64,000 nucleotides of DNA, from NCBI GenBank assembly GCA_045837725.1, contig JBEWZL010000022.1, forward strand, positions 1 to 64,000. Direction: 5' to 3'. Positions 23,311 to 56,244 of the stretch are shown here, piece after piece (position 1 is the first letter of the stretch; each line of letters starts with the position of its first letter). The notes beneath the pieces are model-generated. The model was not told the origin of the DNA. It made no database searches and was given only the letters and a program-made list of their open reading frames with translations. The translations under genes were made by a program, and so were the position numbers. Origin of the DNA: Vermamoeba vermiformis. Taxonomy: Eukaryota.

Positions 23311-24186
23311 GAACGAATGCGCGCATATCAACTATAGTGGCCTATACTCCTGTAAATACTAATGTAAATATACGAACATTACAACGAAATCAAACCGTTC
23401 AAAACAACTGCAACATCGGTTAGATCCGCCTGTCCAAAAAGGTACGGCAAATCACAAAAATGGTATTAAATTTGCCTATTAAAGTAGTATAGGGCCTATT
23501 AGTTTTCTAACCTTTTTAGTTTGTAGGTGGATTAAAAACCATTCTTCGCTTTCAAATAATTTGGAAATCTGAACAAGCTAAGTATGCCCTTAATAATATA
23601 TTATTATTACAACGGAATTTAAAAATTGCCAAAGTGGCTTCGCGGCATTACAAGCAAAACGAAAAATTAGATTTTTCTTTTTCAGCCGCAGCGACGAATT
23701 TAAAATTTAGTTAATACAGGCTTACTTGAAAGTATATCAATTGTTAAACTATTTATATCATTTTGTTTTTGTTCTCGTCGCGCTAATTATTATCAAAAAA
23801 ATACGGATACTTCTTTAAATTGAGCTTTACGATCGCTCTCTATCTTAAGTAGCGTAACAAGTCAAGAGGATATATATTGGTCCAAGCATCAGTATATTGG
23901 GCACACGCGTTGGCCCGTAAAAAACCCACGCAAAAACAAACTTGCCAAATTTAGAAATTGCACTTATTTTTTGATCCAAAAAAACATGAGTACTGAAAGC
24001 TCTTTCTCAATCAAACATGATCGATCACTAGTGCATGACTGATAAATGTACAAGTATAATAGAGTTTCCTCTTATTTTCGCCTGTTGATTTTAGGCGACT
24101 TTGTAACGAGAATTTGAGTTCTGCTTTATTTTCTTCGTAGCTATTTATAATTACGCTCAGTCCGCAACACCTCGCCTTAGTAGAAT

Positions 24187-25169
24187 ATGAAGATCCTGAT
24201 AGGCATTGTTATCACTATTCTCTGCTTGATCGGCTACACAAGATCCGCAACTCGTCTTTCCGTTTACACGAGCAGCGACTGCTCAAATTCGAGTCTCATT
24301 GGATTTATTAACGCCCCGGCCTTATATCCAGCGGTAATTATGCCACTAAAAATAAGCCTTATAATTATCAAAGATCTTAGTTGTCGGTTTAATGAAAATC
24401 CGACAATTTTTAATTAGAGATAGTACTGTCAGAAAAGAATACTGATTTTTAAACAGGGTAACTATCGCTCGATCGGATGCACACCTTCATCTGACGGACA
24501 ATACTACGATATTAAAAAAGGCCTTGATGAGTTCGATCTTCGATTCTCACCGGTGGATTGGTCTTTCAACTACTTACTAGTAGCATCCATCTCTATTGTG
24601 GGAAGTAGTTGTTCTACTATGGATGAAACTATTGCAGTCACCTACGCAGGTCAGTGTTGTCGTTGATCGGATTTTTGGTTTCCGTTCGGACACAAATCTG
24701 ACTCAAAAATTTAATCATAGTCAAGCCTGATGTTTGCATGAACACCGGACCGTTTTCCGTGGCCGAACTAGACAACGCTACCTCGTCAATTAAGTTTCCT
24801 TCATGTGTAGCAAACGCTTCCGATATCGTCCTCGCGGATATTTTCGGATGTGCCGTACAATCATTCAGCATGCAGAACGCCACGTGTGCGCCAGACACAA
24901 ATAATAATCTTTACCTTGGATTCTTTTGTTCCCCGCCTCCCACCGCTCCCGTAACTACAACAGTCCCAAGCACCGAACCCGCCGTCGATCCCAACACTCC
25001 CGGAACAGCTCCGACCATGACTCCAACCACAACTCCCATTAGTGGCCCTATTAGTATCCCTACCAATGTTCCTGCTGCCGTGACAACGCCGGCTAAGGTA
25101 TCATCAGCCTCGTTGACTTCATTATCTGTTGTTAGTGCTTCTGTCGTCGTTTTTAGTTTATTCTTGTAA
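24187..25169 (+). CDS. Secreted, probably GPI-anchored Cys-containing surface protein, copy 1 of 3
   Basis: Signal peptide, RSATRLSVYTSSDCS, intron, Cys-containing domain, Pro/Thr stalk, hydrophobic tail. Confidence 0.8.
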
Positions 25170-25595
25170 AAGAGGTAATGGAGTGGATGAACTCCCTAAC
25201 CAGCTGATATTATAAAGTGGTTTTAATTTGTTTATTTTTTTGCTCCAGATTTAACAAACCAAGATCCAGCGTAATTGGCCCATTTAAGGAAAACATGTCT
25301 CCGACCCAATTTTGCAAAAGGAAAATAAGAAAACGGAACTTAACGTTCAATTAGCACCAAAGTTGAACAAGCTCGCAACCAAAATAATAATTGCCTAATT
25401 AAGAATCGATGAAGCAATTCTTTCTGTCATTTTAAGCGATATTTCTATTTTAAATCATGACGCATGACGTATAATAGTATTTGCATTGAACGGGTGCGAT
25501 ACCAATGTTGATCCCGATAAATTTCGGAGTTTGCCGTTTGTTTTTTTTTTCGACTCGCATTCTAACCACAACACCTTACATACTATAATTATACT

Positions 25596-26521
25596 ATGAA
25601 AGTTACTATTGTTATTGCTATTCTCTGCTTTATCGGCTACGCAAGATCCGCAACTCGTCTTTCCGTTTACACGAGCAGCGACTGCTCAGATGCGAGTCGC
25701 ATTGGATTTATTAACGTTCCAGCCAGCGTTCCAGGATTGTATTCAGAGGTACGTTGCCAATAATTAATCAACCTTTTTAATAACAATTTTTAAACAGAGA
25801 TAGTACTGTCAGAAAAGAAAACTAAATTATAACGACAGCAAATAATACTCATTTTTTAAACAGAATGACTATCGCTCCATCGGATGCACACCTTCATCTG
25901 ACGGACAATACTATGATATTAAAAAAGGCCTTGATGAGTTCGTTTTGGAATTCTCACTAGATTGGGCTTACGTACTACAAGGATATTTCTCCGCTGTGGG
26001 AAGTGATTGCGTTAATATGGATGAAACTAATGCACTAACCTACGCAGGTAAGTTTTATGTTTCATCGAATTTTTTTCAATCGGATCTGTTTTGTGGCGGA
26101 TACAAATCTAACTCAAAAATTTATCATAGTCAAGCCTGATGTTTGCATGAACTTCGGACCTTTAGCCGTGTCAGAAGCAGACAACAGCACCACTTCATTT
26201 ATGGTTACTTCATGCATAGACGGCGTTGCCCAAATCTTCATCGGGTCAGGTTACGGATGTAGCGTATATTTAAGCATTATGAAGGACGGCACATGTGGAT
26301 CAGACATAGATGATGAGTTTTACGTCTCATTCTTCTGTCCCCAGGCTCCCGCCGCTCCCGGAGCAATAGCTCCGATGATATCGGCTCCTACCGCCAAACC
26401 CATTAGAGCCCCAATTAGTGTTCCTGCTGCCGTGACAACGCCTGCTAGGGCATCTTCAGCTTCATTGACTTCATGCTCGATTGTTGGTGCTGCTGTTGCT
26501 GTTTTCGGTTTGCTCTTGTAA
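25596..26521 (+). CDS. Secreted, probably GPI-anchored surface protein, copy 2 of 3
   Basis: MKVTIVIAILCFIGYARSATRLSVYTSSDCS; same exon layout and C-terminus (PAAVTTPA..SSASLTS) as copies 1 and 3. Confidence 0.8.
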
Positions 26522-26877
26522 GTGCGGATGTGCTCCTAAAAAACAACCCGGATGACAAAACAGCTGTAACAACTTGTTTTCACATAATTTGACGAAAATC
26601 CGCGATCCGGAGTGCAATATTACCAATGCTTGTAACAAACGAACCAAAATAATAATTGCCTAATTAAGAAAAGAATCGATGAAACAATTCTTTCGGTCAT
26701 TTTAAGAAATATTTCTATTTTAATTCATGACGTATGACGTATAATAGTATTTGCATAGAGCGGATGCGATTTTCTAAACCGATGTTGATCCCGATAATTT
26801 TTTGGGTTTTGCCTTTTCGTTTTTTTTCTACTACTAGCATTCTAACCACAACACCTGACGCAGTAAAATTATTTAAT

Positions 26878-27796
26878 ATGAAGATTACGATTTTTATATC
26901 GATTCTCTGCTTTATCGGCTACGCAAGATCCGCAACTCGTCTTTCCGTTTACACGAGCAGCGACTGCTCAAATACGAGTCGCATTGGATTTATTAACGTT
27001 CCAGAAGGCGTTCCAGTATTTTATCCAGAGGTACGTTTGCCAATAATGCCGTTTTAATATAATCAAAGATCAGTTGTCGGTTTGTAAGCCGATAAATTCA
27101 TAACGACAAGTAAATAATACTGATTTTAAAACAGAGTGACTATCGCTCGATCGGATGCACCCCTTCCTCTGACGGGCAATACTACGATATTCAAAAAGGC
27201 CTTGATGAGTTCGTTTTGAAACCCTCACCGGATTGGGCTTACGTACTAACAGGAACTTTCTACGCTGTGGGCAGTGATTGCGTTGACATAGATGAAACTA
27301 ATGCACTCACCTACGCAGGTAAGTTTAATCGTTAATCGAATTTTTTTGGATTCCTTTTTTGGCGGTTACAAATCTGACTCAAAAATTTATCATAGTCAAG
27401 CCTGGTGTTTGCATGAACTACGGACCCTTTGCAGTGTCCCAAGCTGACAACAGTGCATATTCATTTAAGGTTAGTTCTTGCGGTACCGGCGACGTCTTCT
27501 TCGCATCCGGTTACGGATGTAGCGTGCAAGCCATCACTATGCAGGACAACGAGTGTATACCAGACTCTGTGAATAGTATTTACCTCGGATTCTTTTGTCC
27601 CCTGGCTCCCGCTGCACCCGGAGCACCACCAACTCCTCTCACGACCGCTCCTACCGAACCCAATAGTGCCCCTATTAGTGGCCCTTCCAAGGCTCCTGCT
27701 GCCGTGACAACACCCGCTAAGGCATCATCCGCCTCGTTGACTTCATGCTCGATTGTTGGTGCTGCTGCTGTAGCTGTTTTGAATTTGTTCTTGTAA
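26878..27796 (+). CDS. Secreted, probably GPI-anchored surface protein, copy 3 of 3
   Basis: MKITIFISILCFIGYARSATRLSVYTSSDCS; paralogous exon layout and hydrophobic tail. Confidence 0.8.
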
Positions 27797-28167
27797 CAGC
27801 TGTGGATGTCCTTTGCCTTTTCTTACTATTAGATGTAACGCAATAAGCATCGCAGCTCATTTATAGGCTGTTCACGCATATACATAATAAATAAATATTT
27901 TTAACGTTCCCAGAGCATCTGAATCTCAAATCGATAAATCTATTTTGGTGACTCAACTCGCATCGCGCTAAAGATTATTTTCCAAAAATCTGCGAATATA
28001 TCTAGATAAATTATAATGATTCTCTGTATTAAATAGTGTAACCAGTCACTTCTGCGTTTAAAAACAATTACCGTCGCTAATCGGCGTTACTACTACTTTA
28101 ATAATTTAATTATATGGCATAGTAGTTGTGCTTCAGGCGAAGCTATCGCACTACAAAACACTGCCAG

Positions 28168-28324
28168 CATCAAGGCATTGACTGTAAGTATTATGAATAA
28201 CAAATATAACTGTCACGTGATTACTTCGGTCAAACAAAGTCAAAGTTGCGTTGCACGAGGACGTTTCACTGACGCGATTCTCAACCAGGGCAAGATCAAC
28301 TGGACCAGCAAAGAAGAACTCGAT
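28168..28324 (+). pseudogene. Internal fragment (with intron) of the gene at 52145-52734
   Basis: CATCAAGGCATTGACTGTAAGTATTA...CAAGATCAACTGGACCAGCAAAGAAGAACTCGAT is near-identical to ~52264-52425. Confidence 0.85.
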
Positions 28325-28360
28325 CTCGGACTTGTTATTTACAGTTTAATTTTACGAGTT

Positions 28361-28809
28361 TTACAAGACCGTTTGTACAAAGAATTTTTTTTGAAGACAC
28401 GGGATCGAAAGAGCGAATTGAACTGGATGGACAAGCGTATTGAAGACTAAAATCCACAGGTATTCTGAAATAATAGAATTCCTGGCATAAACACCATACA
28501 AAGCAAATGAAGTTAGGGCAAGTAAACCAGCAGCCGCAATTCCCGTTCCTATTTAATCGGTGTCATTCGTTAGGGTTTGGATCGGATCCAAAAAAATATA
28601 CTTGACTTACCTACAGTACTGACTATTAATATTGTGCGGTTGTTGTGTAGTACACCGATATGTGCTAGTATTGACGAAGTGACTAACCAAACTGCAGGAC
28701 CAATAAGGGGAACATAACCAATAAAGAGCAACAAGATCGAGAAGAAGAGACATCCGATAGAGACACCGAATAGTGCTCGATGCAAATGATTTGTTGGAAA
28801 GAGCGACAT
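28361..28809 (-). CDS. Small four-TM membrane protein (2 exons), paralog of 45751-46208
   Basis: MSLFPTNHLHRALFGVSIGCL...HNNRTILIVSTV, intron, GTGIAAAGLLAL...KKFFVQTVL*. Confidence 0.7.
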
Positions 28810-29098
28810 TGACGACTAAGACTGCTTAATTACGAGCAAGATCCTTTTGTTTTTATTGGGGCCCAATAGAAGGTCCCGTCCGACCGAATTTCATGTTTTT
28901 TTACTTTGCGGACAATTTTGGAATTTCGATTTTATTATAACGGATTTCATTCAGTTACCAATCTTAAGCAGCTCTTGCCTTCATAATGGTTTAGGGACAG
29001 TCGAAAAAGCGAATTATATTTTGCCGATTTGACGAGTGCAGTATATTATTAAATAAAAGAGTATAATATAATAATAGCGTAGATTTCGTCGACCTGAT

Positions 29099-30453
29099 TT
29101 ACAAGTCCATGTTGTCCCCCAAATCGCAGACCAAGCGTCCGCCTTGAATTTCGGGCCATGGGTGAGGTGTTACCAAATAAATGACAGTATCTCGATCATC
29201 ACCTTTAGGCAGTGGCAATTTGCCTCCAAATCGTTGAAAGCGTTCGTACACACATCGCTCTTTTGGTGGCATTCGAGCGAGTTTTTCTTTCTCGTGCCTC
29301 TCTTTTGTTGCTGCTTCGCTCTCTTCTATTTGTTGTTCAAGTTGAGCATCGGTCGGTTTCGTAGCGAGTTTTTCTGCGGGAACGGATCCTTCTTTTTTTG
29401 ATTTTTCTTCTTGGAAATTTTTCTGAACTTTTTCTTCGCGCGGCTCTTCTTCGTTTCTCTTTTCGCTACCGTCCTCGTCTTCATCCTCCTCCTCATTATT
29501 TTCGTCTTCCTCCTCTTCTTCCTCTTCTTCGCAAGATCGAGATACTTCGCCAAAAAAAATAGTTTCGTCGCCCTTCAACCAAGCCTTGCTGCGTACAATA
29601 AGATGACCTTCTCCAAATAAATCGTTGGTAAATTTGTAATCTCCCCTTTTACCGCATCCTGGGTAGACAGTACGATCAGATCGGGATCGAGTAAAACTTA
29701 AAATATTGCTTACCCTCTACATGGGCGTACCAAAACGCATCGCCAAAGAAATCGATGCAAAAGTCAATGCAGCCACCTTCCCAATACGGGCACCACCTCC
29801 CACTATCATTGAAGAGGTAATCCTTGCCTTTGAACGCCAAGATCCGCTGGAGATACGTAGCAGGCGCGATGTGCGTAGTGTCGTTAAAGGCTATTGGCGT
29901 AGTGTCTTGTTCAAACTCTGTTTGGTAGTTCTTAAAGTTCGTTGAGTACCCAACATTATCCTCACTATAATAGAAGTTGTCCGATCCAAAAATTCTGCGA
30001 AACTGAACGAGAATTAAATTCGGGCCGTAAAGGACAGCATCAGTAGCTGCGATTTGAGAAATATATATAGCTTACAATTTTAGGTCTTCGATGTAGGGTA
30101 TTGCGAGGAACAAAGGATGATCAGTATTCACAGGGCAGTACGAAGCTGAATTTTTTTCTGGGAAGAGTAATGACGGAAAGACCTCCAATATTGATGTCTT
30201 TAAGGGATATATATATTCAGCATCCGAGTCCATTGAATCGTGAGAGTTTGAAGCCGAATCAGATTGATCAGTACCGCGTTTCATTTCGCTCGTTTTTATC
30301 TTCTTTGGTGGTGAAGAGGATAGATCTTCAGTATCCTATAATACAAAGGTTATATATTAAAATGGTTAGAATTACCGACAAATAAATAGAGGCGGCGCTA
30401 ACCTCACACTTTCTTTTCATTCCAGCAGATGTGGTCTCTCGTTCACTAGACAT
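29099..30453 (-). CDS. Hypothetical protein with NLS-like KRK motif and poly-Glu tract, multi-exon; paralog of 43797-45295
   Basis: ATG at 30453 (MSSERETTSAGMKRKCE), GT-AG introns, ORFs 30072..30284 and 29099..29578. Confidence 0.7.
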
Positions 30454-31778
30454 TTCGGTCGGTCGGGTAATTGACTTATGTACTTGTTTGTGCTTGTAAT
30501 CGTTAAAAAACGCAGGCCGTAACAGTTCGAGACACGTGATTGTTCAACGAAAATACCCCCGTGCGCACGCCCTGTCTTCTGTCAAATACGGCAAATGTAC
30601 ATTACAGTCACATTAATGTAAAGTAATTATATATATTAATCCAGCAGGTAATTAGCAATCGGCGCACTGCCGTCGGATTGTGTTTGGATGAGAAATATTG
30701 CGCAGTTATTTTGCGCGTAATTATGACAACGATAGTTTATTACCCTGGAATATTATGAATAATATAAGTGGTATATATATTTTACCAGCCGGAACAAATT
30801 AATTTGGGATAATCTTTTGTTAGATTTGAATCTACCACCGCGAATGCCGGACTTGTAGCAACTGTGTAAATCTAATATCGTAAAATAAATAAATAAGATC
30901 ACGCACTTGGATAAATGTGTTGTAGTGCACGATTATGGTCGCAATCACAATTAAAAAAAAAGCGCCAAAATCTTCTTTTTCAACATTACGACCTTCTGTA
31001 GGCAACAAGCAGAGATAGACAGTGACTACATAGAAAATTCGATTAAAATTGAGACTGGAAGCACGTTCAATATTTGTGTTTAAATTTAAATTCACTGGCG
31101 AGAAAATACGTAAGTGTTATACTTATTCACTTATTATAATAATTAACAAGGCCTATTGATTTTGCTCATATCGTCTGTTGCAGATCTGGATCTAATTTTC
31201 ATTTTTGTTTTCATCATGAAGCATTAGTTGTCTCAAGTGAAAAGTTGCAACTTTTCACTGTTACAACCTTTTCAAGCTTGCTTTCATGTGAATATTAAGC
31301 ATTACGATTTTAAAAATTCAAGTAAGGACCTAGTTTGCCCGAAATGATTTTAGTTTGATAAAAAATCTGCGCTATTAGTCGAATTAATTACGGATGTGAC
31401 GATCTGATCAAAAAATGCCGCAACTTTGCCTGACCTATTGAGCGGAGTGCTTCCGACAATCGACAAGATACTTAAACCAATAAAACAGCCTAATGACGGT
31501 TGTTTCAGGGTCCTTGTACCATTATTGCCGCAATAATTTCCCGATAAATTTTATCTTCTCAAAAATAATTTTTGTAGCTGCGTTGCAAATTGTTCCGGTT
31601 AGAATCAAGATCAAGCACATATGTCGCGAGTTTCAACTAGATCTACATTTGTATGTCCAAAAATTTTAAGTAGATGTGACACGACGATGTCACAAAACGT
31701 CAAAAAATGCGAAAAAATCATTTTTAAATCGCCAGACGAGAAGATAACAACACAAGCTTCTATTATATATTTAAGAAG

Positions 31779-42926: not shown

Positions 42927-43796
42927 TTGGTCTATTGCGTCGTGAAGGGCTGAGATAAGAAGACTGACGTTTTACCGGGTTTTGAACTTGCAGGCCGATT
43001 TGTAGGCCATCGATTAAGGCTGAACTTTCGGCACACTATTCAGCATTTTTAGTAGCATTTAATCACAATTGTGCCTTGGGGGCCATACCGGGTAATTAAG
43101 ATGGTTGGAACTTCCTTCCGATTTTTCGATGTAATAATCTTTGTTGGAAATTCTACTCTTCCAATAACAGTAAATTAGTATCTATAGCGGCTAGTATTAT
43201 GAGCTCATACTAATTGCTTTGTTGTCGACAGAACGGATGAATGTTGAAAAAGAATCTTTGGCGCTTTTTTTTTTTTTAATTATCACGCAATCATAGTCGT
43301 GCACTACAACACATTTATCTAAGTGCGTGATCTTATTTATTTATTTTCAAGATTAGATCTAAACAGTTGCTCACAACTCCGGCGTTCGCGGTGGTAGATC
43401 CAACTCTAACAGAAGATTATCCAAATTAATTTTTCCCGGCTGGTAAAATATATACCACTTATATTATTCATAATATTCCAGGGAAAATAAACTCTCGTTG
43501 TAATAATTACGCGCAAAATAACTGCGCAATATTTCTTATTCCAAACACAATCCGGACTGTGCGCCGATTGCAAATTACCTGCTGGATTAATGTATATATT
43601 TATATATAATTACTTTACATTAATGTGACCGTAATGTACATGAGCTGTAGTTGACTGAAGACAGGGCGTGCGCACGGGGTTATTTTCGTTGAACAATCAC
43701 GTGTCTCAAACAGTTAGGCCTGTGCAGATTTTGCCAACATTTTAACGATTACAAGCACACAAACAAGTACATTAATCAATTAACCGACCGAACGAA

Positions 43797-45295
43797 ATGT
43801 CTAGTGAACCAGAGACCACATCCGCTGAAATGAAAAGAAAGCGTGAGGTTAGCGCCGCCTCTATTTATTTGTCGGTAATTCTAACCATTTTAATCTATAA
43901 CCTTTGTATTATAGGAGACTGAAGACCTATCGTCTCCACCACCAAAGAAGATCAAAACGAGCGAAACGAACGGAGATCTCGGTGCTCAATCTGATCCGGC
44001 TTCAAACGCTCGCAACGATGCAATGGTTATCGATTCTAATACTCCTGAATATCCCTCAAAGTCGGCAACAAGCTGGGACGCGAAGTTATTGAAGGTCTTT
44101 CCGTCATTACTCTTCCCAGAAAAAAATTCAGCTTCGTACTGCCCTGTGAATACTGATCATCCTTTGTTCCTCGCAATACCCTACATCGAAGACCTAAAAT
44201 TGTACGCTAAATATTTCTCAAATCGCAGCTACTGATGCTTTCTAACTTAGTTTAATTTTAACGGTTGGCTCCGTGAGCAAACAAACTCGTCAACTGGTAT
44301 TTCTTCCGGGACCTGCTTGGACGAAGAGTGTACGCACCTATTAATACGTCATAATAATTTACTGGAAAAGCCTCGCTAAATTCTCGTTCAGTTTCGCAGA
44401 ATTTTTGGATCGGACAACTTCAATGACGACAATATTGAGTTCTCAACGGAGTTTAAGAACTACCAAACAGAGTTTGAGCAAGACACTACGCCAATAGCCT
44501 TTTATGACACTACGCACATCGCGCCTGCTACGTATCTCGAGCGGATCTTGGTGTTCAAAGGCAAGAATTACCATTTCGATGAGTTTGATGGGTGCCCGCT
44601 GTGGGAAGCCGATGGCTGGGTTGACTTTTGCATCGATTTCTTTGGCGATGCATTTTGGTACGCCCATGCCGAGGGTAAGCATTATTTTAAGTTTTACTCG
44701 ATCCCGATCTGATCGTACTTTCTGCCCAGGATGCGGTAGAGCGGGCGAGTACAACGCTAACAACGATTTATTTGGAGAAGGTCGTCTTATTGTACGCAGT
44801 AAGGCTTGGTTGAAGGGCGAAGAAACTATTTTTTTTGACGAAGTATCTCGATCTTGCGAAGAAGAAGAAGAAGAGGAGGAAGATGAAAATATTGAGGAGG
44901 ATGAACATGAGGACGGCAGTGAAAAGAGAAATGAAGAAGAGCTGCGCGAAGAAAAAGTTCAGAAAAATTTCCAAGAAGAAAAATCAAAAAAAGAAGGATC
45001 CGATCCAGTTCCCGCAGAAAAACTCGCCGCGAAACCGACCGATAAGCTTGCTCAACTACAACAACAAATAGACGAGAGTGAAACAGCAACAAAAGAGAGG
45101 CACGAGAAAGAAAAACTCGCTCGAATGCCACCAAAGGAGCGATGCGTGTACGAACACTTTCAACGATTTGGAGGCAAATTGCCACTGCCTAAAGGTGATG
45201 ATCGAGATACTGGCATTTATTTGGTAGCACCTTACTCGCGCGAAATTCAAGGCGGACGCTTGATCTTCGATTTGTCCAGCAACATGGAATGGTGA
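43797..45295 (+). CDS. Hypothetical protein with NLS-like motif and poly-Glu tract, multi-exon; paralog of 29099-30453
   Basis: MSSEPETTSAEMKRKRE|ETEDLSSPPPKKIK...; last exon GCGRAGEY...RSKAWLKGEETIFF...FGGKLPLPKGDDRD. Confidence 0.7.
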
Positions 45296-45750
45296 ATCCG
45301 ACGACAAAATCTACGCTATTATTATATTATACTCTTATACTATTCTTTAATTAAATCATACGCTTGCCTCGTCAAATTTGACGATCGGCAAAATATAAGT
45401 CGCTTTTTCGGCTGTTGCAGGAAATTACGAAATACGCAAGAGCAATTGTGATCAATAAAAGGACACAAAACTAAACGAAGCTTGTTATTAATATGATCTT
45501 TTGGGTGAAATGTATACTATTAAAGTCATTCAGACTGGTCATGATAAGATTTGACAACATCGGCGCTCAAATCTTTATTTATTGAATTGCGCAATTCATT
45601 TATTTGATTGAAAATGAAATCGAAAATCGAAATATTCGATCTCGCAAAGCAAAAAAAGATGGAAAACGTGAAAGATTTGGTCTGACAGCGGCTAATTGTC
45701 GCGACAATAAAAAAGATCGATGAGGAACAATTCAATTATCTTACTCATCA

Positions 45751-46208
45751 ATGTCGCGCATACCAACAGACAACCTTCATCGAGCTCTATTCGGTGTCAC
45801 TATCGGAGCTCTCTGCTTATCGACAATATTGCTCTTGATTGGACTGATTTTCCTCAATGTGACCGTAATTGTTCCTGCAGTTTGGTTAGTCACATCATCA
45901 ATTCTAGCACTCGTCGGTGTGCTCAAGAATCACCGCACAATATTAATAGTCAGTACTGTCGGTAAGTAATGTATATTATTATTTTTGGATCTGATCTGAC
46001 GAATGACGCCGATTGAATAGGATCTGGAATTGCAGCTGCAGGTTTACTTGCCCTAACAATCCTTTCTGTGTTTTGGGTTTATGCATGGAATTCCAGCGTT
46101 TCAGTCGAGCTCGCGATTTTAATCTGCAATACGATTATCTATCCAGTGCAATTCGCTCTATTGATCTCCTGTCTTCGAAAAAAATTCTTTGTAGAGACGT
46201 TCTTGTAA
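45751..46208 (+). CDS. Small four-TM membrane protein (2 exons), paralog of 28361-28809
   Basis: MSRIPTDNLHRALFGVTIGAL...NHRTILIVSTV, GTAAGT donor, GSGIAAAGLLAL...FFVETFL*. Confidence 0.7.
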
Positions 46209-46247
46209 ACTCCAACATAGTTTCTTGTAAATACGAATAAATCAGGT

Positions 46248-46435
46248 ACGGCTCCGCAGCCCAATTTGGAATTTGCAATGCAAAAGCGTTGGCGAACAAA
46301 TTAAGGGGGGCGAAGGGGCGAACCGCTTTTCGGCGCGGTGGTGGGTCAGAACAGATCGCGAGATCTGCCACTGTGTCGTGCACAGCGGAGGCCTTGGCCC
46401 TGCCAATGGGGGTTTTCACCCCACACCGTAGCCGT
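46248..46435 (-). ncRNA. GC-rich multibranch structured RNA forming the retroelement 3' UTR (family unrecognised)
   Basis: Terminal ACGGCT/AGCCGT helix enclosing GGGGT-GAAA-ACCCC, CCGCTGTG/CACAGTGG, CAGATC/GATCTG, ACCGC/GCGGT, TTGGC/GCCAA and TTTGC/GCAAA helices. Confidence 0.55.
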
Positions 46436-46442
46436 GTCTCAA

Positions 46443-49400
46443 TTATTTTATTTTATATATTGTTGGATCAGTTTTTAACGCGCGATCTGGATGGCGCTCG
46501 AGAAAGGTAATTCTATCGCTTAGTATAACAAAGTATTTTCCAAAATTATTGTCGCCTAAATTGTGACGTGCTCTCATATTCCATTTGAAGTGTAGAGTCG
46601 TAATCGTAATAATTATATTTATTAATCTGTTTTCGGGTAGTTGTAAAAGATCGCGGAAGAGAGCCCAACGGCTCCGATAATTTATGAAGTATTTGTTTAC
46701 GTGTGCAAGCAGACTGTTGTCAATCCAGTCTATGCAGTCGAAGAGTGCGTGTTCAATTGTCTCTGGGACTTCGTGGCAGTGCTCGCACGTTGAATGCGGG
46801 ATTTGATGGGTTTTTTGAAGGAACACACGAGTAGGTAAGCAGTCGTAAATTAAGTACGTTAGGAATTCTTTCGTTTGGTTGTTTATATTAATTTTGTGGC
46901 TATTTTCAATTAATTTTTTAATTTTGTTTAGATCGAGTCTGTCACGAATTATTTTCGGAAGCTTGAATTTGCGCACGAGCTGTTTGGCGGCGGTATGTAA
47001 TAGTTGATTAATATTTTGGTTCATTACGAATTTTAGTTTTAAATCGGATTCGCTTTCAAAGGCACAGTATTGCGTGACGATATTGATTGGCTTTTGGTTA
47101 CTTTTTATTAGATTTATTTCTGATAGTTGTTTTGATGTAGGGATCAGTTCCTGTTTGATGACTTTGCCTGACGCTATAGTTACTTTTATTGGAATTGCGT
47201 CTGTCTTGTGCACTCTGTAGTTGACGATCATGTTCCCTTTGATGAACTTGTCTTCTGGGCATTTGAAGGTAATATAGTTGTTCTCGTCTTTGTTTATAGC
47301 GATACCTATTTTATTAATGCGGTTATTTTTTAGTGCTGCGATCCACTCGTTCTCGCAGATTGTGAAGCGTCTGTGCATTATGCGTCTCCATGCATTGGTT
47401 ATGTTGTCGAATACTCTGTCAGTCACTGCTTTACTGTCCGTTTTTGCAAGCAAGTGCAATTGGTGGTGGTCTTTCTTTTCCTCAAGGTAATTTTCTAGCA
47501 TTAGCATCCATGGGGTTGGTTTAGTTTTGTTTTCTTTAATTGCTAAGTATTTGACGATCCATTTCGATGTGAGTGCCGTTGACTTAGCTCGTATGTCGGT
47601 GAAGTTTTGACCACCTTTATCAAATGGAGCGTTTAGTTTTCGAATTTGAATTGGGTTTTTCTTGCGTGTCCCTTTGTAGAATTTAGATATGCTTTGTTCT
47701 ATACTCCTAAGGTGTGAGTGGTGTATGAAATATACACTGCCCAGGTACCATAGTTTCGATAGCGCTAAGGATTCGACTACAATCTTTTTGCCAAACAAGG
47801 ACAGTGGGGCGTATTTCCACCGTCTAAGTACTGAGTTGATCTTGTTGACTTGAGCTTTCCAAATGTTTTGATCTATGGGGTATGACACCTTGGCTCCAAG
47901 GTATTTAAGTCCCTGCTCGGCATTTGTGAATTGATAGCTACCTGGGATGTCCTCCCATTTGCCAATTGTGAGCATTTTTGATTTGCTTTCATTGACCTTC
48001 GCTCCTGTTATTGCACAATACGTGTCAATGCACTGCTTGAGGGGTATGAGCTCTTTTTTGTTGTTAATGAGTGCCATAGTGTCGTCTGCATAGCCTTGTG
48101 TCTTTTGTTTGACGATTGGATTGGGACTTATGTCTGAGTTATCCCGAACTAAGGTGTGGAGTACTTCAATTATAAGGATAAATAGAAGGGGAGATAGGGG
48201 GCAGCCCTGTTTGACCCCTGATTGTACTTTAAAGTGGTTCGAAAGTTTGTTGTTGATTCTGACCTGGGCCCAGCTATTCCTGTAGATAGCTATTACAATT
48301 GACAGGAGTTTAGGAGGGAAATTTAATTCCCTGAGTATAGCTATCAATGACCTGTGGTCAATTCTGTCAAATGCTTTTTCCCAGTCTAGTAGCAGTAGGG
48401 CTATTCTTTTGTTGTGTATTTTGTAGTGTTCAATTAATGCCTGGATTGTGATAATATTCTCTCTAATATCCCTGCCTTGTATGAATCCTGTTTGGTGTGG
48501 GCCAACATAGTCTCCCACAATAGGGGCTAGTCTGTCTGCGACACATTTAGTGAGGATTTTGTACGCTGAGTTGGTTAGTGTTATGGGTCGCCAGTCTTTG
48601 GGTTCTGAGTTCTCCTTGGGTGTGTTTGGTTTTGGGACTAGTGTTATAATTGAATTCTCGAAGTTCTTGGGGATTTTCTCTCTGCTTGTAATCTCGTTGA
48701 ATAGGTTAGCTAGCACTGGGGCCCACTCTTTTTTCAGTGTTTTGAATAAGGCCATAGTTAATCCATCAGGACCTGGGGCTTTGTCTATGGTGATGTTGTC
48801 TATTGCGTGACAGATTTCGTTAACTGTGAACTCTTCACAGCAGATGTTGTTGGTGAATTTGAAAGATTTTGTTACTGACGACATCACCTCCTGTAATTTA
48901 TTCATTTGCACTTGTTTGGGGCTATATAGTGTCTTGTAGAAGTTCCTGGTTACGTTCAGCATTTCGTTGGTAGTTTTAAGCGTTTTACCGCCAGACTGCA
49001 TTGAGCTTATTATAATTCGCTTGTCTTCTTTGTTTCTGTTGAAGAATGACTTAGTGGGCTTCTCTCCGTTCTCATACCAGTATCGAGCTTCTTCATAGCA
49101 TTTGTTATTGAGTTTTTCTATTTCTATTTGGTTTATTTGTTCCTTAATACGTTCATACTCTATGCATTCTGTGTTGTCATCCCTTTCAAATTCTGCCATT
49201 CTTGCCTCTAGGTCTACCAGTCGCTTGTCCCTTTGCTGGTCTAACTCCTTTTGTTTTGTTTTGAGGAATTCCTTTATTTTTGTCATTAGGTTGTCAAAGT
49301 GTGTGGCCCACGTGATGTTGTTTGGTTTCATTATTCTGAGCCACGTACTAATTTGCTTCTGTATTTCTTTGTTCTCCATGGTGACAGTTCGTAACCTCCA

Positions 49401-50171
49401 ATGGGGTTTTCCAATGTCTACTGTGGTGAGATTTAGTCCAACTGCAATAGGGTTGTGATCGGACACTGTCAATGAACTAATAAAATGGAAGGAGAAAAAG
49501 TTCCTGCCGAATGCGTTAGTGAGGACTCTGTCTATGCTTGACTTGGTGCCTGTTTGTTTGTGTGTGTGTGTGAATTTGATGGTTGAAATGTTAGTGTCGG
49601 TTCTACACGTGTCTAGAAGCAAGTGGTCAAGGCACTCATTATAGTGGTTTCTAATGTTATTTTTGTAGCCAGTGGTACTTTGTTCCTTTTCAAAGTTAAA
49701 ATCTCCTCCTATCAGCAGAATGTGGTTTGGGTGGTCTTTAACGAGTTGTGCTAGTGAGTCAAGGGTTCTTTTGCCAATAGTTAAGTTGTGTGGGATGTAT
49801 ACAGAGACTATAAGTATTCTGTGCTTGTCTATGTGGCCGTCGACTGCTATGAGACAGCCGTAGTTGTCCTTAGTGATATTGTCTATTTCAAATTGCATGT
49901 TGCTTCGAATAAGTATAGCGACACCCCAGTTGTGTTCGATGTCGACGGAATAGAAACGCTTGAAACTGGAGAATTCTCCTTTATTTAAATACTTGTTATT
50001 GTGTATTTCTTGTAGTAAAATAAAGTTTGCATTAATAGTTTTAATATATTGGGAGAGTAGACGTCTTTTTTCAGGGTCGTACAGTCCGTTAACATTGTTA
50101 CATAGGGTTATAATATTGTTGGCGTAGGTAGGGGATGATTTGATTATTTCTCTTAGTTTATGAAAGGACAT
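46443..50171 (-). CDS. ORF2: APE endonuclease + reverse transcriptase + C-terminal CCHC zinc knuckle (1242 aa)
   Basis: NVNGL, LQEIH, GGDFN, IDRVL, SDH (APE); KAPGPDG, WRPITL, QTGFI, DWEKAFDR, GVKQGCPLSPLLF, YADD, KYLG (RT); CEHC...ETIEHALFDC. Confidence 0.97.
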   Translation of the reverse strand: MSFHKLREIIKSSPTYANNIITLCNNVNGLYDPEKRRLLSQYIKTINANFILLQEIHNNKYLNKGEFSSFKRFYSVDIEHNWGVAILIRSNMQFEIDNITKDNYGCLIAVDGHIDKHRILIVSVYIPHNLTIGKRTLDSLAQLVKDHPNHILLIGGDFNFEKEQSTTGYKNNIRNHYNECLDHLLLDTCRTDTNISTIKFTHTHKQTGTKSSIDRVLTNAFGRNFFSFHFISSLTVSDHNPIAVGLNLTTVDIGKPHWRLRTVTMENKEIQKQISTWLRIMKPNNITWATHFDNLMTKIKEFLKTKQKELDQQRDKRLVDLEARMAEFERDDNTECIEYERIKEQINQIEIEKLNNKCYEEARYWYENGEKPTKSFFNRNKEDKRIIISSMQSGGKTLKTTNEMLNVTRNFYKTLYSPKQVQMNKLQEVMSSVTKSFKFTNNICCEEFTVNEICHAIDNITIDKAPGPDGLTMALFKTLKKEWAPVLANLFNEITSREKIPKNFENSIITLVPKPNTPKENSEPKDWRPITLTNSAYKILTKCVADRLAPIVGDYVGPHQTGFIQGRDIRENIITIQALIEHYKIHNKRIALLLLDWEKAFDRIDHRSLIAILRELNFPPKLLSIVIAIYRNSWAQVRINNKLSNHFKVQSGVKQGCPLSPLLFILIIEVLHTLVRDNSDISPNPIVKQKTQGYADDTMALINNKKELIPLKQCIDTYCAITGAKVNESKSKMLTIGKWEDIPGSYQFTNAEQGLKYLGAKVSYPIDQNIWKAQVNKINSVLRRWKYAPLSLFGKKIVVESLALSKLWYLGSVYFIHHSHLRSIEQSISKFYKGTRKKNPIQIRKLNAPFDKGGQNFTDIRAKSTALTSKWIVKYLAIKENKTKPTPWMLMLENYLEEKKDHHQLHLLAKTDSKAVTDRVFDNITNAWRRIMHRRFTICENEWIAALKNNRINKIGIAINKDENNYITFKCPEDKFIKGNMIVNYRVHKTDAIPIKVTIASGKVIKQELIPTSKQLSEINLIKSNQKPINIVTQYCAFESESDLKLKFVMNQNINQLLHTAAKQLVRKFKLPKIIRDRLDLNKIKKLIENSHKININNQTKEFLTYLIYDCLPTRVFLQKTHQIPHSTCEHCHEVPETIEHALFDCIDWIDNSLLAHVNKYFINYRSRWALFRDLLQLPENRLINIIITITTLHFKWNMRARHNLGDNNFGKYFVILSDRITFLERHPDRALKTDPTIYKIK

Positions 50172-51478
50172 TATTTCTTCTTATTCCCCTCCACGTTTTT
50201 TGATTTCCCTGTTCTACGCTTGTAACGTTGGAATTTGATCTTTAGCTGTCCGATTACGTAATGCTTTGTAAGAATGTTGTTGAAATCTTCCGAGCTTTGC
50301 ATGCGCAGTACTGCAAATTGCATGGGGTTGCCCTTTTTGTCTTTGGGAACGAAGATTTGCTGCACTGGAATGCCGATCTTGTCAGTGACTGCTTTGACGT
50401 GTTTGGTGGTGAGTTTGATTCCTCGGAAGCCTGTCATCTTCACTAGCTTCGCTGTGCTTGGCATGTGGCCGTCGACACTGACATATACTAGCTTCGGTTG
50501 TTCAGTTGGATGGCTCTTGTCCTTGTTTTCTTTTGGTGGTATCTCAATAGGGAGCACTCGTCTCTGTGCAATCTTACAAACTAGGTCGTCGGTAAGGCCT
50601 GACACAATAGTAGTGCCCGTTCCTTTGCCATAGTTGATTGCAACATTCTCAGTTTTGGCTACAACTCCGAACTTTTTGAGCTCCGTAACGATATGTTCCT
50701 TTGAAAAGTCTGCTGTGAACAGGACAATGCCTGGAGTTTTGCCGTAGTTGGTATCATACTTCTGTATGGTGCAGTTTGCTGCTTTGAATTCTTGGATGCA
50801 GGCTTCGATATCTGCTTCGTTATGTAGCACTACAAAGACACGATTGCCGTTTTCGCTTAGTCTAAGGTACTCATAGTCAACCGGTTTAGTTATGTGTTTG
50901 TTGATGAGGGCAATGGCTTCTGCCTGGCTGTTCATTGTTCCTTTTGTAATGTTAATGATAACTGTTCGCTGATCCAGCTCTTTGTCTAATTCGTCAAAGT
51001 TGACGTCGAGTTCAATTTCCTCTTCACCGGAGCTTTCGTCATGGTCAGTGGTGTCACCTAAATTGCTATAAACTGGAGCAATGGGACTTGTCTTTTGTTT
51101 TTTCGCAGATCGACCGTTGGTGGGATCTGGCGAGTCTTCTCTTGAGCGCTTTGAGTTTCTAGAGCCGCTAGTAATTTTAAGCGTAATTAGAAGTATGTTT
51201 TTGTAAGTAACGATTATTAGGGCGAAGTTCGAGTAGTCACGCGACGTCGCGCGATTTAATTTTTTAAATTTAGTATTTAAAATATTATTGCTAGTGAAAA
51301 ATTCGTCTCGTGAGAGTAGTCTCGTGCCCAGTGCATAATAAACACCCCACGCAGTTGCACTGGGACTTCTCTCGATTTCTCGAGAGCGCGTTGGGATGGC
51401 GTTTTTCACGCACGTAAAAGATATAATATATAGAGTATATAATACGTACGTGACGAATGAATTTAGCGTTGCTTGCAT
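50171..51478 (-). CDS. ORF1: RRM-like nucleic-acid-binding protein; probable start at 51478 with predicted intron 51449-51168
   Basis: Acidic/basic N-terminal region, then RRM-like segments (RVFVVLHNEADI; QQIFVPKDKKGNPMQFAVLRMQS); its stop overlaps the ORF2 ATG. Confidence 0.8.
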   Translation of the reverse strand: MQATLNSFVTYVLYTLYIISFTCVKNAIPTRSREIERSPSATAWGVYYALGTRLLSRDEFFTSNNILNTKFKKLNRATSRDYSNFALIIVTYKNILLITLKITSGSRNSKRSREDSPDPTNGRSAKKQKTSPIAPVYSNLGDTTDHDESSGEEEIELDVNFDELDKELDQRTVIINITKGTMNSQAEAIALINKHITKPVDYEYLRLSENGNRVFVVLHNEADIEACIQEFKAANCTIQKYDTNYGKTPGIVLFTADFSKEHIVTELKKFGVVAKTENVAINYGKGTGTTIVSGLTDDLVCKIAQRRVLPIEIPPKENKDKSHPTEQPKLVYVSVDGHMPSTAKLVKMTGFRGIKLTTKHVKAVTDKIGIPVQQIFVPKDKKGNPMQFAVLRMQSSEDFNNILTKHYVIGQLKIKFQRYKRRTGKSKNVEGNKKK

Positions 51479-51776
51479 TTTAGATTGTTTTCTTTCCAGT
51501 TGTGGTGTTTTGTTTCCGTCTAAAGTTCCGAACAAATTAAGTATTAACATTGAGCGATGAAAAATGGATGGAATGTGCGCGAAAGAATCACAGCGGAATA
51601 ACTCATTATATTTACGCATTTGACAAATTGCAAGGCTGAAACATCGTTCATGAAAACAGGAAGAGTAACACTGCCGAGGACAAAATCAGGACAGCACTCT
51701 CGTGTCCTGTCTCCTCCTATGGAACTCTCGCGATTGTTCAGCAATTAACCGTAGTAAAAATATCATTACAACTCTT

Positions 51777-51798
51777 CTATAAATGACGTATTTATAGC
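51777..51798. promoter_or_regulatory. Palindromic double TATA box around a TGACGT core
   Basis: CTATAAAT-GACGT-ATTTATAG lies between the divergently oriented retroelement and the gene at 52145. Confidence 0.45.
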
Positions 51799-52144
51799 GT
51801 TAGTCCGAATCTAACCTAGGACGCAACTCCGTATAATCTTACAGGCTTCATTAACTTGCAACCATTCATCGTTCTCATTGGTGCTTGATCGGTTGGTTTC
51901 TTGACCGCTAGTCATAAAATGATTGCGTTGTCAATGAAAATGTGAGCGGAAAAAACTGCGATTTGATTCACATGTAACCAGCGCGAACAACATTACAATA
52001 AGTGCGAACAAAGTGATAATGGACGTGCAAGTCCTCAAGCAAGATATTTAAGCACTTGCACGACACTTGTTTTGATTCATTCAGTTCAATCGAACAATCA
52101 ACAACACCACTCACCACTCATTCTTTTGCACCAATCACACGCAA

Positions 52145-52734
52145 ATGTCTCTCGTTATGCGCAAAGCCATCGCTGAATGCGAAGCAGGAAACGGATTGAA
52201 ATCACTCAACGATGCCTTGAAGAAGATCAGTGCCACTTTGACTGCTTCACTCGACATTGAGTCCATCAAGGCATTGACTGTAAGTATTAATTAATAACAA
52301 ATATAACTGTCAGGTTGATATTACTTTGGTCAAACAAAGTCAAAGCTTGCGTTGCACGAGTACGTTTCACTGAAGCGATTCTCAACCAGGGCAAGATCAA
52401 CTGGACCAGCAAAGAAGAACTCGATGCCCCAGTGGCCGTGCTCAAGTACTTCACGCGATTCAACGTGCTTCAAACCATCGCCAAAGCATTCGAGAAGGTC
52501 GGCAAAGACGCCATTGGCAAAGAAGCCATTCAATCTGAGATCCACAAGCTCGTCGTGCACGTGGTTCAAGATGGTGCTCAGACTGGAAATTTCGCAGTCT
52601 CGTGGCAAGTCGAGAAGAAAGACAAAGAGTTGCACGTGACTGTTGGTCGTGACTGGCCCTCGCATGCCAAAGACAGCAACAACGGCTATCCTGCTGAAGA
52701 TGCTTTGGCCAAGTTGATCGAAGGCTGCTTGTAG
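52145..52734 (+). CDS. Hypothetical ~175-aa soluble protein (2 exons), strongly biased codon usage
   Basis: ATG at 52145, GTAAGT intron from ~52280, second exon runs into ORF 52315..52734; C-ending codons predominate; two degenerate copies elsewhere in the window. Confidence 0.8.
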
Positions 52735-53010
52735 ATGATCGATATTGTACCGCTTCTATTTTGATCGACTACTGATCTACGTTATTAATAAATAACTCAC
52801 GGATTCGTTCTAGTTCGTTACAATTATTATATTTCTAAGAATTGGCTACGGAGCAACGGGTGGCTCACCCATTTCTAAAAACAGCATCAGTACACATCGC
52901 ATCGAATAATTTTAGCTTTTAAAATTACGCAATAACGTATAATTAACTTATAATAGCGTTGGTATTGTTATTAAACGAACATATTTTATCTCGTACTGTA
53001 TTTTGTCGAT

Positions 53011-54528
53011 TTATGAAAATCCAGTATCCATCAATGCATTTGCTAGAACAACATTCTTCCAGCAATCATAAACTGCTTGAAAGACTATGCTGTCCTCGCT
53101 ATAAGGATACAACGTCAAACAATGTCCGATAATGGTGTCCGTTAATTGCCTCGTGAAGTATTGAATGTAATTGTTGGCCGGGATATCCAAATTTTCGTTT
53201 GCAATTCTTTCTTTCAGTTTCGCTTCGCCGATAAAAAACACGCCTAGTGCTGGATGATACGAAGGCTGGTGAAAATCTCCTAACTTGCCAAGCCCACTTT
53301 TGCGAGCTGTTGCACGTTTGAACTGCTTTTTTGTGATTGGTCCGTGCGGTCTGGTCGACACATCGCGTACGAATGATTTGCACATATCTAAGTACGTTAT
53401 CTTCGTACCATCAGGTTCAATCAATTCCGAGTCAAATTCAGCCATATTGACCTGTCAAAAAAAAAATGTGAAAAAATTGAAACGAAATTTCGCCGGATTG
53501 ATTAAGGTCCAATAATTACCACTAAGAACGAAACAGGGTCGCAATCGTATTGAAAATTTGCTCGAAGATGATCGATATTAATAGCTACTAGCTTCCAAAC
53601 TCTGTAAGATGCGATCAGATCAGCAGTAAAAAAAAAACAAAAATTTAGATGAAGACGTACTCGGATCCGAATCTCTTTTCATCAATTCGATATGTCCGTT
53701 CATGATAAAAAGTCCATTTTTCAGTGAAAATCAACTTTTTGTAGTCAGCCACAGTGGTCAGCGCATCGCTAGCCGACTTTTCTAGCCCGTTATTGAGACA
53801 AAAATTCCGCCATATCGATACGTCATTGAACACTAATAATAAAATTACCTAATATTTATAAATATATATTTGCTACGCACTCAACGTACCTTGGTTCAAT
53901 TTTTTGTTAACGCGGATCAAGTTAAGACAATCTCGAGGTTGTAGTTGAGAAGCTATCATGTATAATACTTCTAGAGGTAGTGCACGTGATATATCAACGC
54001 CGTCATTATTATTTGTAACTAACAAAGCAAAAATTAGGGTTTGATTTCCTCGGATGCAGATCTGCTTTTTAATACCCGTTGACCGATTAGGCGTTAAATT
54101 ATAGTAACTGCGTTGACTTGCGGAGTACTCAATAAAACGTATTGTGGTGTAATCCAAGTCTGTCGGGGGGGTCTGCAAGACGGATTCGCTCAACTTTTTG
54201 AAGAACCAACTGAGATCAGTACCAGGGACACCTGTCATTTAATTATTCGTGAATAAATACCGATTGTATCGCTAAATGCGAGGAATATAATTGCTGCTTT
54301 CAATTATGAAATTTAAAAATTAAAAAAGATTTTTAGTAATTTACCTGCGACGTATGATAGTAACTCGTGCTTCTCAAGGTGTTCACCTGAATAATATACA
54401 ATTATATTAATTTTAAAATTAATTCTTAAAGCAGTCTTTGCCCAAACGATTATTTGCCTACCTTTGTTCTTCTTTTGTTTTTTCTGAGCTTTATTTTTGT
54501 TTTTTTTGTCCTTCTTGTTCTTTTCCAT
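53011..54528 (-). CDS. F-box protein with Lys-rich N-terminus, multi-exon, tandem copy A
   Basis: MEKNKKDKKNK...; DISRALPLEVLYMIASQLQPRDCLNLIRVNKKLNQ...WRNFC; last exon ELIEPDGTKITYLDMCK. Confidence 0.75.
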
Positions 54529-54792
54529 GTAGATGACTTAATGATTTTAAAATCAAGAAACAGTTGAAGTTGTCGTTGGGCGTGTGTAAAATAACAGAAT
54601 TCCTATTTTTTTTGGGTTTTCTGATTCGCATGCAACGTTTCTGTGGGCGTGTGTAAAATAATCAAAATTCCGATTTGATTCGTAACCGATTTTTCTGTCG
54701 TCGACCAAAATCTGGTCCGCTCTCCCGAAGTGATACAATTGAGATAGAAAGAACAATGCAACTGCTATATAAATGTTTATCTACTAATTTTA

Positions 54793-56244
54793 TTATTTGA
54801 TTCCGGTGTGACTCGACCAGGGTGTCTGTTCGCAGATGCTTGTAAAGTTTGGATCTCCCCAACAAACATAAGGCCATGCCACAGTTGGACGAATTGTTGA
54901 TACTAACAGTTGTCTGAAATGTTCTACGTAACGGTCATCTTCATGAATGACAACGGGGAAATTCGGATCTTGCAGGACTTTTTCTTTGAATTGAGCTTGA
55001 CCAACGAGACATACCACAATGTACTTGAAATGATACGGCTGATAAAAATCTTGCGTAATCAAAGAAGAACGTCGACCTAACGCTTTCTTACGATAGGTTA
55101 ACTTCAATTGTGACTTTGTGATTGGGCCGTAAGGTCTTGTTGCGATCTGTTCCAAGACTTGTCTGCATTTATCCATGTAGTTAATCTTCGTGCCGTCTGG
55201 CTCCGTTAACTCCACATCGTACTTTGACACGTCAACCTGTCAAAAGAAGTGTCATTGGTTAGAATCGCGTCAACCGTGAAAATTATTTGATGACACGTGT
55301 CAAAGATATTTTGAGCGTTTACGTACGACAAAGACTACCATATCGGCTAGGTAATAATGACAATTTTTCAGATAAATATCAAACGGTGTCGCTCGTAGCC
55401 TCCAGACGCTTTTGCAAAAAATGACGTCAACTTTGTATCTGATACGATTATATAGATACAAGTATTATTATACATAACTTACTCATGGCAGAGCTTCTTT
55501 TTGCAGACATAATCTACTTCTTGTGTTAATGTCCAGTGTCCATCGAACAGCAGCTTTTTGCATTCGGTAGTTGTAAACGACGAACAATTTTCAACGCCTT
55601 TATCGGCACAATATCTCCTCCATATAGGTGCTACATTTAGTACTATAATTCGTCATATCAGTGCTATTCGTTAATGTCCAACAAACGTACTTTGATTTAG
55701 AAGCTTGTTGACTAAAATTAAATTGAGACAATCTCTCGGGTGTAGGTACGAAGCGAATGAATATAGCATTTCTGATGGTAATGCGCGTGATATATCAACT
55801 CCACAGCCATAACGCTCACAGTAGGCTGGATCTGTTGAATTTGTTAGTAGGGGACGTTAAAGTCCCTTGTGATTTACCTAATGACACAGGTGCGTATGGC
55901 TCATAAAACCCATTAAAATTCTCAATTATATTTAGCACTGTTTTATCGTATTCGCTCAAGCTTCGCGAGAGCGAGTGGCTGATCGATCTGAAAGCTGACA
56001 AAAGAAGATGTGATCCAGGAATCGCTGTCAGAAAAATTAACGAAAAATAAAAAAAAAGTAATCTATGCAAATTCTTACCAAAGAAAGATATCGGCAGCTT
56101 TTCTAAAATTTTCTTCGTTTTATCTTAGAAAATTATTCTCAGCACTACACCCCGCTTATATATTTCTCCTACGCACGTACCTTTCTTGACCGATTTACTA
56201 CTCTTTTTATCTGCTTTCTCTTTTCTGCGCTCTTTTTTTTCCAT
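54793..56244 (-). CDS. F-box protein with Lys-rich N-terminus, multi-exon, tandem copy B
   Basis: MEKKERRKEK...; DISRALPSEMLYSFASYLHPRDCLNLILVNKLLNQ; last exon ELTEPDGTKINYMDKCR. Confidence 0.75.

Follow-up and report, generated by a model that had tools for sequence, protein, structure and literature searches.

An element that is propagated through an RNA copy should hold on to a spliceosomal intron only if unspliced RNA is what is copied, and the locus described here raises the question of how a LINE might keep such an intron inside a coding frame. The window (the whole stretch that was analysed, 64,000 nt at the start of contig JBEWZL010000022.1 of the Vermamoeba vermiformis assembly GCA_045837725.1) carries the element on its minus strand. 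The first-pass annotation had placed an in-frame intron within ORF1, and its coordinates proved exact on that strand: the ATG at 51478 opens a 29-nt exon 1, GTACGT follows at 51449, and a 282-nt segment ends in TACTAG at 51168. The predicted splicing joins the frame as MQATLNSFVT-GSRNSKRSRED, giving an ORF1 product of 341 aa as against 435 aa from the unspliced RNA.

The ends of the element were defined by a 13-bp target-site duplication, the longest word common to both flanks (51541–51529 and 46305–46293), which bounds a 5,223-bp minus-strand insertion, 51528–46306 (Table 1). These bounds make 51478 the first ATG and the segment internal; since the duplication lies upstream of the ATG, the segment was rejected as flanking host sequence and as an exon captured from the host. 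In Pfam, ORF2 matched Exo_endo_phos (E 3.7e-13) and RVT_1 (E 3.1e-36), with zf-RVT falling under the cut-off, and its best solved relative is the LINE-1 ORF2 protein (E 6.6e-68). The RRM_1 match was under the cut-off in this ORF1 (E 0.061) and over it in the homologue P0158 (E 8.5e-05); Atlas matches to ORF1 were all < 0.9. In a quick tree of 19 ORF2 proteins, which contains no named Tx1 or DRE references and gives no clade name, this ORF2 was placed with P0003, P0004, P0006, P0134 and the other families of the genome (SH-aLRT 100), apart from the vertebrate rows. By its domains and closest relatives, the element belongs to the L1 group (APE-type). A Penelope-like identity was rejected, given the AP endonuclease, the two ORFs, the lack of a GIY-YIG match and the lack of a terminal repeat in self-comparison. 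The genome contains two further copies, both 5′-truncated and flanked by duplications recognised by eye, which indicate that the element was mobile in the past.

Table 1. Features of the retrotransposon and of its ORF1 segment, in window coordinates.
Feature	Position	Strand	Basis or remark
5′ copy of 13-bp target-site duplication	51529..51541	-	longest word common to flanks
Full-length L1-group non-LTR retrotransposon, 5,223 bp, both ORFs intact	46306..51528	-	ends, domains
5′ UTR, 50 nt, A-rich, without ATG	51479..51528	-	
Exon 1 of ORF1, phase 2	51450..51478	-	29 nt including ATG; L022 has the same ATG-to-GTACGT spacing
Predicted GT-AG intron, 282 nt, in frame, stop-free	51168..51449	-	homologous 80 codons missing from P0157
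Predicted 5′ splice site GTACGT	51444..51449	-	identical in L022 at 222; P0157 deletion begins at homologous R/YV
Predicted hairpin 1: 7-bp stem, GAAA loop (TTCG in L022)	51369..51386	-	7/7 pairs kept, 4 double changes
Predicted hairpin 2: 11 pairs, long variable loop	51324..51366	-	11/11 pairs kept, 1 double and 1 single change
Candidate alternative in-frame acceptor, 159-nt intron	51291..51293	-	ranks 3rd of 95 AGs, heuristic score
Branch-like CTAAT and predicted 3′ splice site TAG	51168..51190	-	best-scoring AG of 95, under host lower quartile
ORF1 exon 2: acidic/basic N-terminal stretch, conserved body, RRM-like C-terminal part	50171..51167	-	30% identity to P0157, E 6e-40
ORF1 stop/ORF2 start overlap TAATG	50169..50173	-	
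ORF2, 1,242 aa from ATG: AP endonuclease, reverse transcriptase, C-terminal Cys/His region	46443..50171	-	Pfam
Predicted structured 3′ UTR, ends in TTCGCCCC repeats, without poly(A)	46306..46442	-	common to two 5′-truncated genome copies and L022
3′ copy of target-site duplication	46293..46305	-	

The TTCGCCCC repeats take the place of poly(A) at the ends of this element, of L020 and L021, and of the metagenomic relative L022 described below. The 3′ UTR has a predicted structure that is conserved with L022 (4371–4512), with 32 predicted pairs and nine double changes between the two; the truncated copy L020 (3124–3255, minus strand) lacks 26 nt of it. The target-site duplications of the four insertions (51529–51541 and the flanks of L020, L021 and L022) start alike by eye, with TTAA- or TAGA-like letters, hinting at a target preference of the endonuclease. 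Further LINE insertions with open RT frames lie on C196, C287 and C11 (L017–L019) and represent two related families with 45–46% RT identity; L018, on C287, is broken off within ORF1. In the host sequence, inverted paralogous blocks of 77–87% identity and a 93% identical direct copy of 162 nt (43219–46209 and 52264–52425 versus 28168–31008) were seen, together with three tandem paralogues of 70–80% identity at 24184–27799. Rfam covariance models gave no match up to E 1 over 44000–54000, no tRNA gene was found within the 64-kb window, and inspection of the two structured regions for hammerhead or HDV-like core motifs found none.

We then compared the predicted splice signals with those of the host. 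GTACGT occurs 48 times on the two strands, where 26.5 are expected from base composition. Host introns were inferred from sequence by a heuristic applied to 102 kb, and GTACGT opens seven of the 288 candidates, a 3.8-fold enrichment over background, behind GTAAGT with 16. The earlier statement that many host introns share this donor is thus partly right. Within the whole element, GTACGT at 51449 is one of two donor-like hexamers of the tested set. The acceptor at 51168, which is preceded by an AG-free gap of 123 nt and by CTAAT at 51190–51186 (minus strand), ranks top of the 95 AGs from the donor to the end of ORF1. The branch point and acceptor proposed by the annotation fare less well by host standards: the acceptor score of 4.7 lies below the lower quartile of the host set (6.9), and CTRAY is found 8–35 nt ahead of the AG in 15 of 62 host candidates versus nine of 62 control windows. 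Inferred host introns have a median length of 64.5 nt in a set limited to ≤130 nt, and in a separate count two of 58 exceed 203 nt. The predicted signals are therefore host-like yet weak, and 282 nt is long for an intron of this host.

As the annotation had claimed, the segment 51168–51449 contains no stop, and this is true of the ATG frame only. A frame as open as this arose in 0.0012 of 20,000 dinucleotide shuffles when the ATG frame was scored and in 0.0034 when any frame was allowed. The stop-free frame also continues for 69 codons upstream of the ATG at 51478, mostly through host flank, which shows that chance can also yield long open stretches.

A metagenome scan yielded one close locus, L022, among the 80 kept; viral contigs held no relatives and prokaryotic genome contigs one distant fragment. 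L022 (131–4512) is full-length, with a duplication read by eye, and its ORF2 is 55% identical to that of the window element. Only ∼500 nt lie ahead of ORF2, where the ORF1 body is absent and the intron-like segment is kept; retention of the segment after loss of the ORF1 body argues that it is needed in cis. GTACGT is found at 222, 29 nt after the first ATG as in the window element, and a 151-codon open frame, which was equalled in none of 20,000 shuffles, has its stop just past the ORF2 ATG. Indels between the two elements within the segment preserve the frame. A second donor-like hexamer, GTAAGT, lies between the hairpins of L022 (283–288) and is absent from the window element.

Could the donor be conserved merely because it encodes part of a protein? 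A G/TAC context is found at four of 39 Tyr codons in the window ORF2 and at three of 45 in that of L022; since it is rare, protein constraint alone does not predict a conserved donor. The two differences between the elements beside the donor are synonymous, an outcome that protein constraint would also give. At the other end of the segment, three of the four in-frame AGs of L022 would create an immediate stop on joining and the fourth sits between the hairpins. In-frame splicing is thus, as far as can be predicted, not conserved in L022, and splicing there would give no useful ORF1.

These observations bear on an alternative that we consider unlikely, in which the segment is ordinary ORF1 coding sequence that coincides with a promoter or RNA element, any splicing is accidental or a host brake comparable to that of the human L1 SpIREs, and the spliced ORF1 protein has no role. 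The weak acceptor and the lack of in-frame splicing in L022 speak for it, the conserved nucleotides beside the donor might be part of a promoter or of a stem, and human L1 does have functional splice sites with dead-end products (PMC5860796). It sits poorly with a distance from ATG to donor that is the same in elements just 55% alike in ORF2, with a spliced-like protein relative, P0157, that is in frame with the whole conserved ORF1 body, unlike the non-functional 5′UTR/ORF1 variants among the SpIREs, and with the lengths of the window segment (282 nt) and of its counterpart in the relative (240 nt), both multiples of three.

Protein relatives were found with a profile of the two N-termini, those of the window element and L022; a word-based search with the full ORF1 had returned none among 4,994 candidates, and the profile later gave P0156. 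Matches were to a group of 98-aa proteins (P0149 and P0151–P0153), to P0150, P0154 and P0155, and to P0156, a full ORF1 of 402 aa that is 29% identical to the window ORF1 and forms a cluster of three with P0157 and P0158. The 98-aa proteins and one ORF2 cluster are on contigs of the same sizes (19,386 and 4,352 bp), which suggests a second family with a short ORF1; L022 and the P0149 group, which looks similar, may be ORF1-less LINE families. P0150, P0154 and P0155 resemble the P0149 group up to the end of the hairpin region and differ beyond it, which would fit a 5′ end of the element that was joined to other sequence or frameshifted. An open frame across the segment is conserved among relatives, at the DNA level in L022 and at the protein level in the P0149 and P0156/P0158 groups, as the annotation had proposed to check.

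The most informative pair is P0157 and P0158. P0157 (329 aa) corresponds to P0158 (407 aa) with exactly 80 codons removed, and the two show one mismatch across the first 300 residues. The missing stretch begins at a position homologous to the window donor, and its length of 240 nt, like the 282 nt of the window segment, is a multiple of three. It has two equal best placements, both with Arg at each end, which fits a phase-2 intron of the form AG/GT...AG/N, the AG and GT letters at the junction being inferred from Arg. In the homologues the residue ahead of YV is T, W or R, each of which can end in G. P0157 is a single record from a 1,192-bp contig, known as protein; it could stem from a cDNA or a retrocopy, a microhomology deletion being the less likely origin. 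The pair is the strongest evidence for splicing of the segment in the lineage, which we regard as very probable; that this particular copy is spliced at the predicted coordinates is also probable, at a somewhat lower confidence. The interpretation of the 282-nt segment as an intron is thus supported. Forms with and without it, which had been anticipated among genomic copies, were found in a related family as P0158 and P0157, which differ at the homologous donor position, and no intron-less form was found in this genome.

How strongly is the peptide itself constrained? Between P0156 and P0158, seven of 79 residues differ in the segment versus four of 307 in exon 2 (Fisher p 0.0019), a rate ∼7 times faster. 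The segment is richer in T and poorer in first-position G than exon 2, and its alignment between the window element and P0158 reaches z 2.2. P0158 and P0151 are identical at 43 of 76 segment residues, the hairpin half contributing 29 of 47 and the rest 14 of 29. The peptide thus seems weakly constrained, with the similarity between families concentrated in the hairpin half. The outcome that would have spoken for a protein rather than an intron, namely a conserved peptide with lost splice sites, is not what was seen, since L022 conserves the donor at the DNA level and the remainder of ORF1 evolves more slowly than this peptide.

We regard as very improbable the view that a functional N-terminal peptide is encoded here without ever being spliced out, and that P0157 arose by microhomology deletion or through faulty assembly. 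In its favour, all homologues have an open frame, indels relative to L022 preserve it, P0158 and P0151 share the identity given above, and a short microhomology at the P0157 junction is possible. A functional peptide would not be expected to change ∼7 times faster than exon 2, or to have its identity mostly in the hairpin half, where the residue changes seem to fit pairing; nor would the P0157 deletion be expected to begin at a donor that was independently identified from two DNA sequences.

The segment contains two predicted hairpins. Between the window element and L022, all 18 pairs are kept through five double and two single changes, and slid controls leave 28–53% paired. The values were equalled in 15 of 500 shuffles, for a structure derived from these same two DNA sequences, and the folding z was −5.51 for the window region and −1.36 for the L022 region alone. 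A hairpin covariance model searched over 97 sources matched only its two training sequences; in this genome, the hairpin pattern occurred at six sites, one of them in the element, versus three in the control. In the proteins, the residue changes appear to fit base pairing, with Gly, Arg or Ser at the loop-end codon and Gly or Ser at a G-U/A-U pair. A comparable arrangement exists in the R2 element, whose translated 5′ region is poorly conserved as a whole yet contains a conserved RNA structure; R2 has a restriction-like endonuclease and is not known to contain a spliceosomal intron.

Direct evidence was sought in the assembly and in RNA. DNA and protein searches of the 43-Mb assembly found no intron-less copy, the 5′ region and ORF1 each being matched once. 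The three next RT matches (45–46% identity) had no ORF1 5′ end in the stretches examined, being 5′-incomplete or at a contig end. Three RNA runs, all three carrying the same label, placed 60, 57 and 30 reads on 45500–55500, nearly all as partial fits and without joints; these reads left most of the interval uncovered, host flanks included, and are uninformative on splicing.

The explanation that we favour, and think fairly likely, is that the 282-nt segment is a weakly spliced spliceosomal intron that carries a cis signal and whose frame is held open for read-through to ORF2. Part of the RNA would be spliced to give the shorter ORF1 protein, the rest remaining unspliced and giving the longer one, and the intron would be inherited only through the unspliced RNA. 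The ORF2 proteins of LINEs show a preference for acting in cis. LINE proteins in general act mainly in cis (PMC3894237), and the unspliced RNA would accordingly have to yield ORF2 protein itself, with ribosomes reaching the ORF1 stop at TAATG. If ORF2 protein needs read-through of the unspliced RNA, stops and frameshifts in the intron would be selected against, whatever the peptide. In both the window element and L022, ORF1 terminates at the ORF2 start or shortly beyond it, and in the more distant family L018 the ORF1 stop overlaps that start. Spliced RNAs that were copied would lose the hairpin region, presumed to be an internal promoter or RNA signal, and would be dead ends, leaving intron-bearing copies to carry the lineage. 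Because the 5′ UTR is only 50 nt long, promoter or RNA signals plausibly lie within the intron and its hairpin region.

In a further alternative the RNA would be divided into two pools, in the manner of retroviruses and Ty1/Copia elements, with the spliced RNA making the proteins and the unspliced RNA serving solely as a template that is mobilised in trans. Plant Ty1/Copia elements provide a precedent (PMC5580714), and in L022 use of an AG at 584, after TACTAAC, would turn the 151-codon ORF into a nine-codon upstream ORF, which could favour reinitiation at ORF2. An untranslated template would be free to gain stops, and the open unspliced frame in every homologue examined is then left unexplained; we consider two pools quite improbable. 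A weakly spliced intron with a frame coupled to ORF2 remains our preferred reading.

Several known systems share parts of this arrangement. Survival of an intron in an element copied through RNA is known mainly from Penelope-like elements. Those elements (Penelope of Drosophila virilis and Chlamys-3_cRei) have retained a spliceosomal intron close to their 5′ ends, over an internal promoter (PMC8557442, PMC4209133), and are alike in this respect; the introns described for them lie in the 5′ UTR and they combine a telomerase-like RT with GIY-YIG, whereas the element described here has an AP endonuclease and an L1-type RT, with the predicted intron in frame and translatable within ORF1. Human LINE-1 is of the same group, and splicing near its 5′ end removes cis-acting sequence, the spliced copies (SpIREs) being dead ends (PMC5860796). 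Its donors are in the 5′ UTR, and 5′UTR/ORF1 splicing leads to a non-functional ORF1p, whereas the donor here is 29 nt into ORF1, is conserved between families and is predicted to give an in-frame ORF1p with a conserved body. The plant Ty1/Copia element EVD shows conserved partial splicing, with full-length RNA kept as template (PMC5580714), but is an LTR element in which splicing is coupled to early termination and produces a short GAG mRNA. In SART1 a UAAUG overlap links the ORF1 stop and ORF2 start (PMC3894237), an overlap that it has in common with our element, and that review makes no mention of splicing. Drosophila TART is a non-LTR element with spliced transcripts (PMC1636488), but its introns are in antisense RNA and are not lost on copying, which sets them apart from the intron predicted here. 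In the accessible parts of the literature on introns of non-LTR elements and on Chlamydomonas LINEs, we found no description of a LINE whose ORF1 contains a conserved in-frame intron, and LINE introns are not mentioned in the corresponding parts of PMC5718144, PMC8226300 and PMC10294476; an earlier annotation is possible.

An L1-type element thus appears to hold an intron across divergent families, and the reason offered here is the combination of a cis element and a frame coupled to ORF2. We also raise, tentatively and with more doubt than belief, the possibility that the LINE intron works as a built-in switch, with unspliced RNA giving ORF2 protein and being the sole means of propagation, spliced RNA giving an excess of the short RRM-type ORF1 protein, and the intron being so indispensable that derived families, having lost the RNA-binding protein, kept it as their whole 'ORF1'. 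If this were so, L1-type elements would have a spliced/unspliced economy like that of retroviruses, and the question of how the intron is kept would have a testable answer. The intact 5.2-kb copy lends itself to such tests, because donor, hairpins and frame can be mutated separately. More generally, some LINE ORF1 proteins may have been annotated with a translated intron as their N-terminus.
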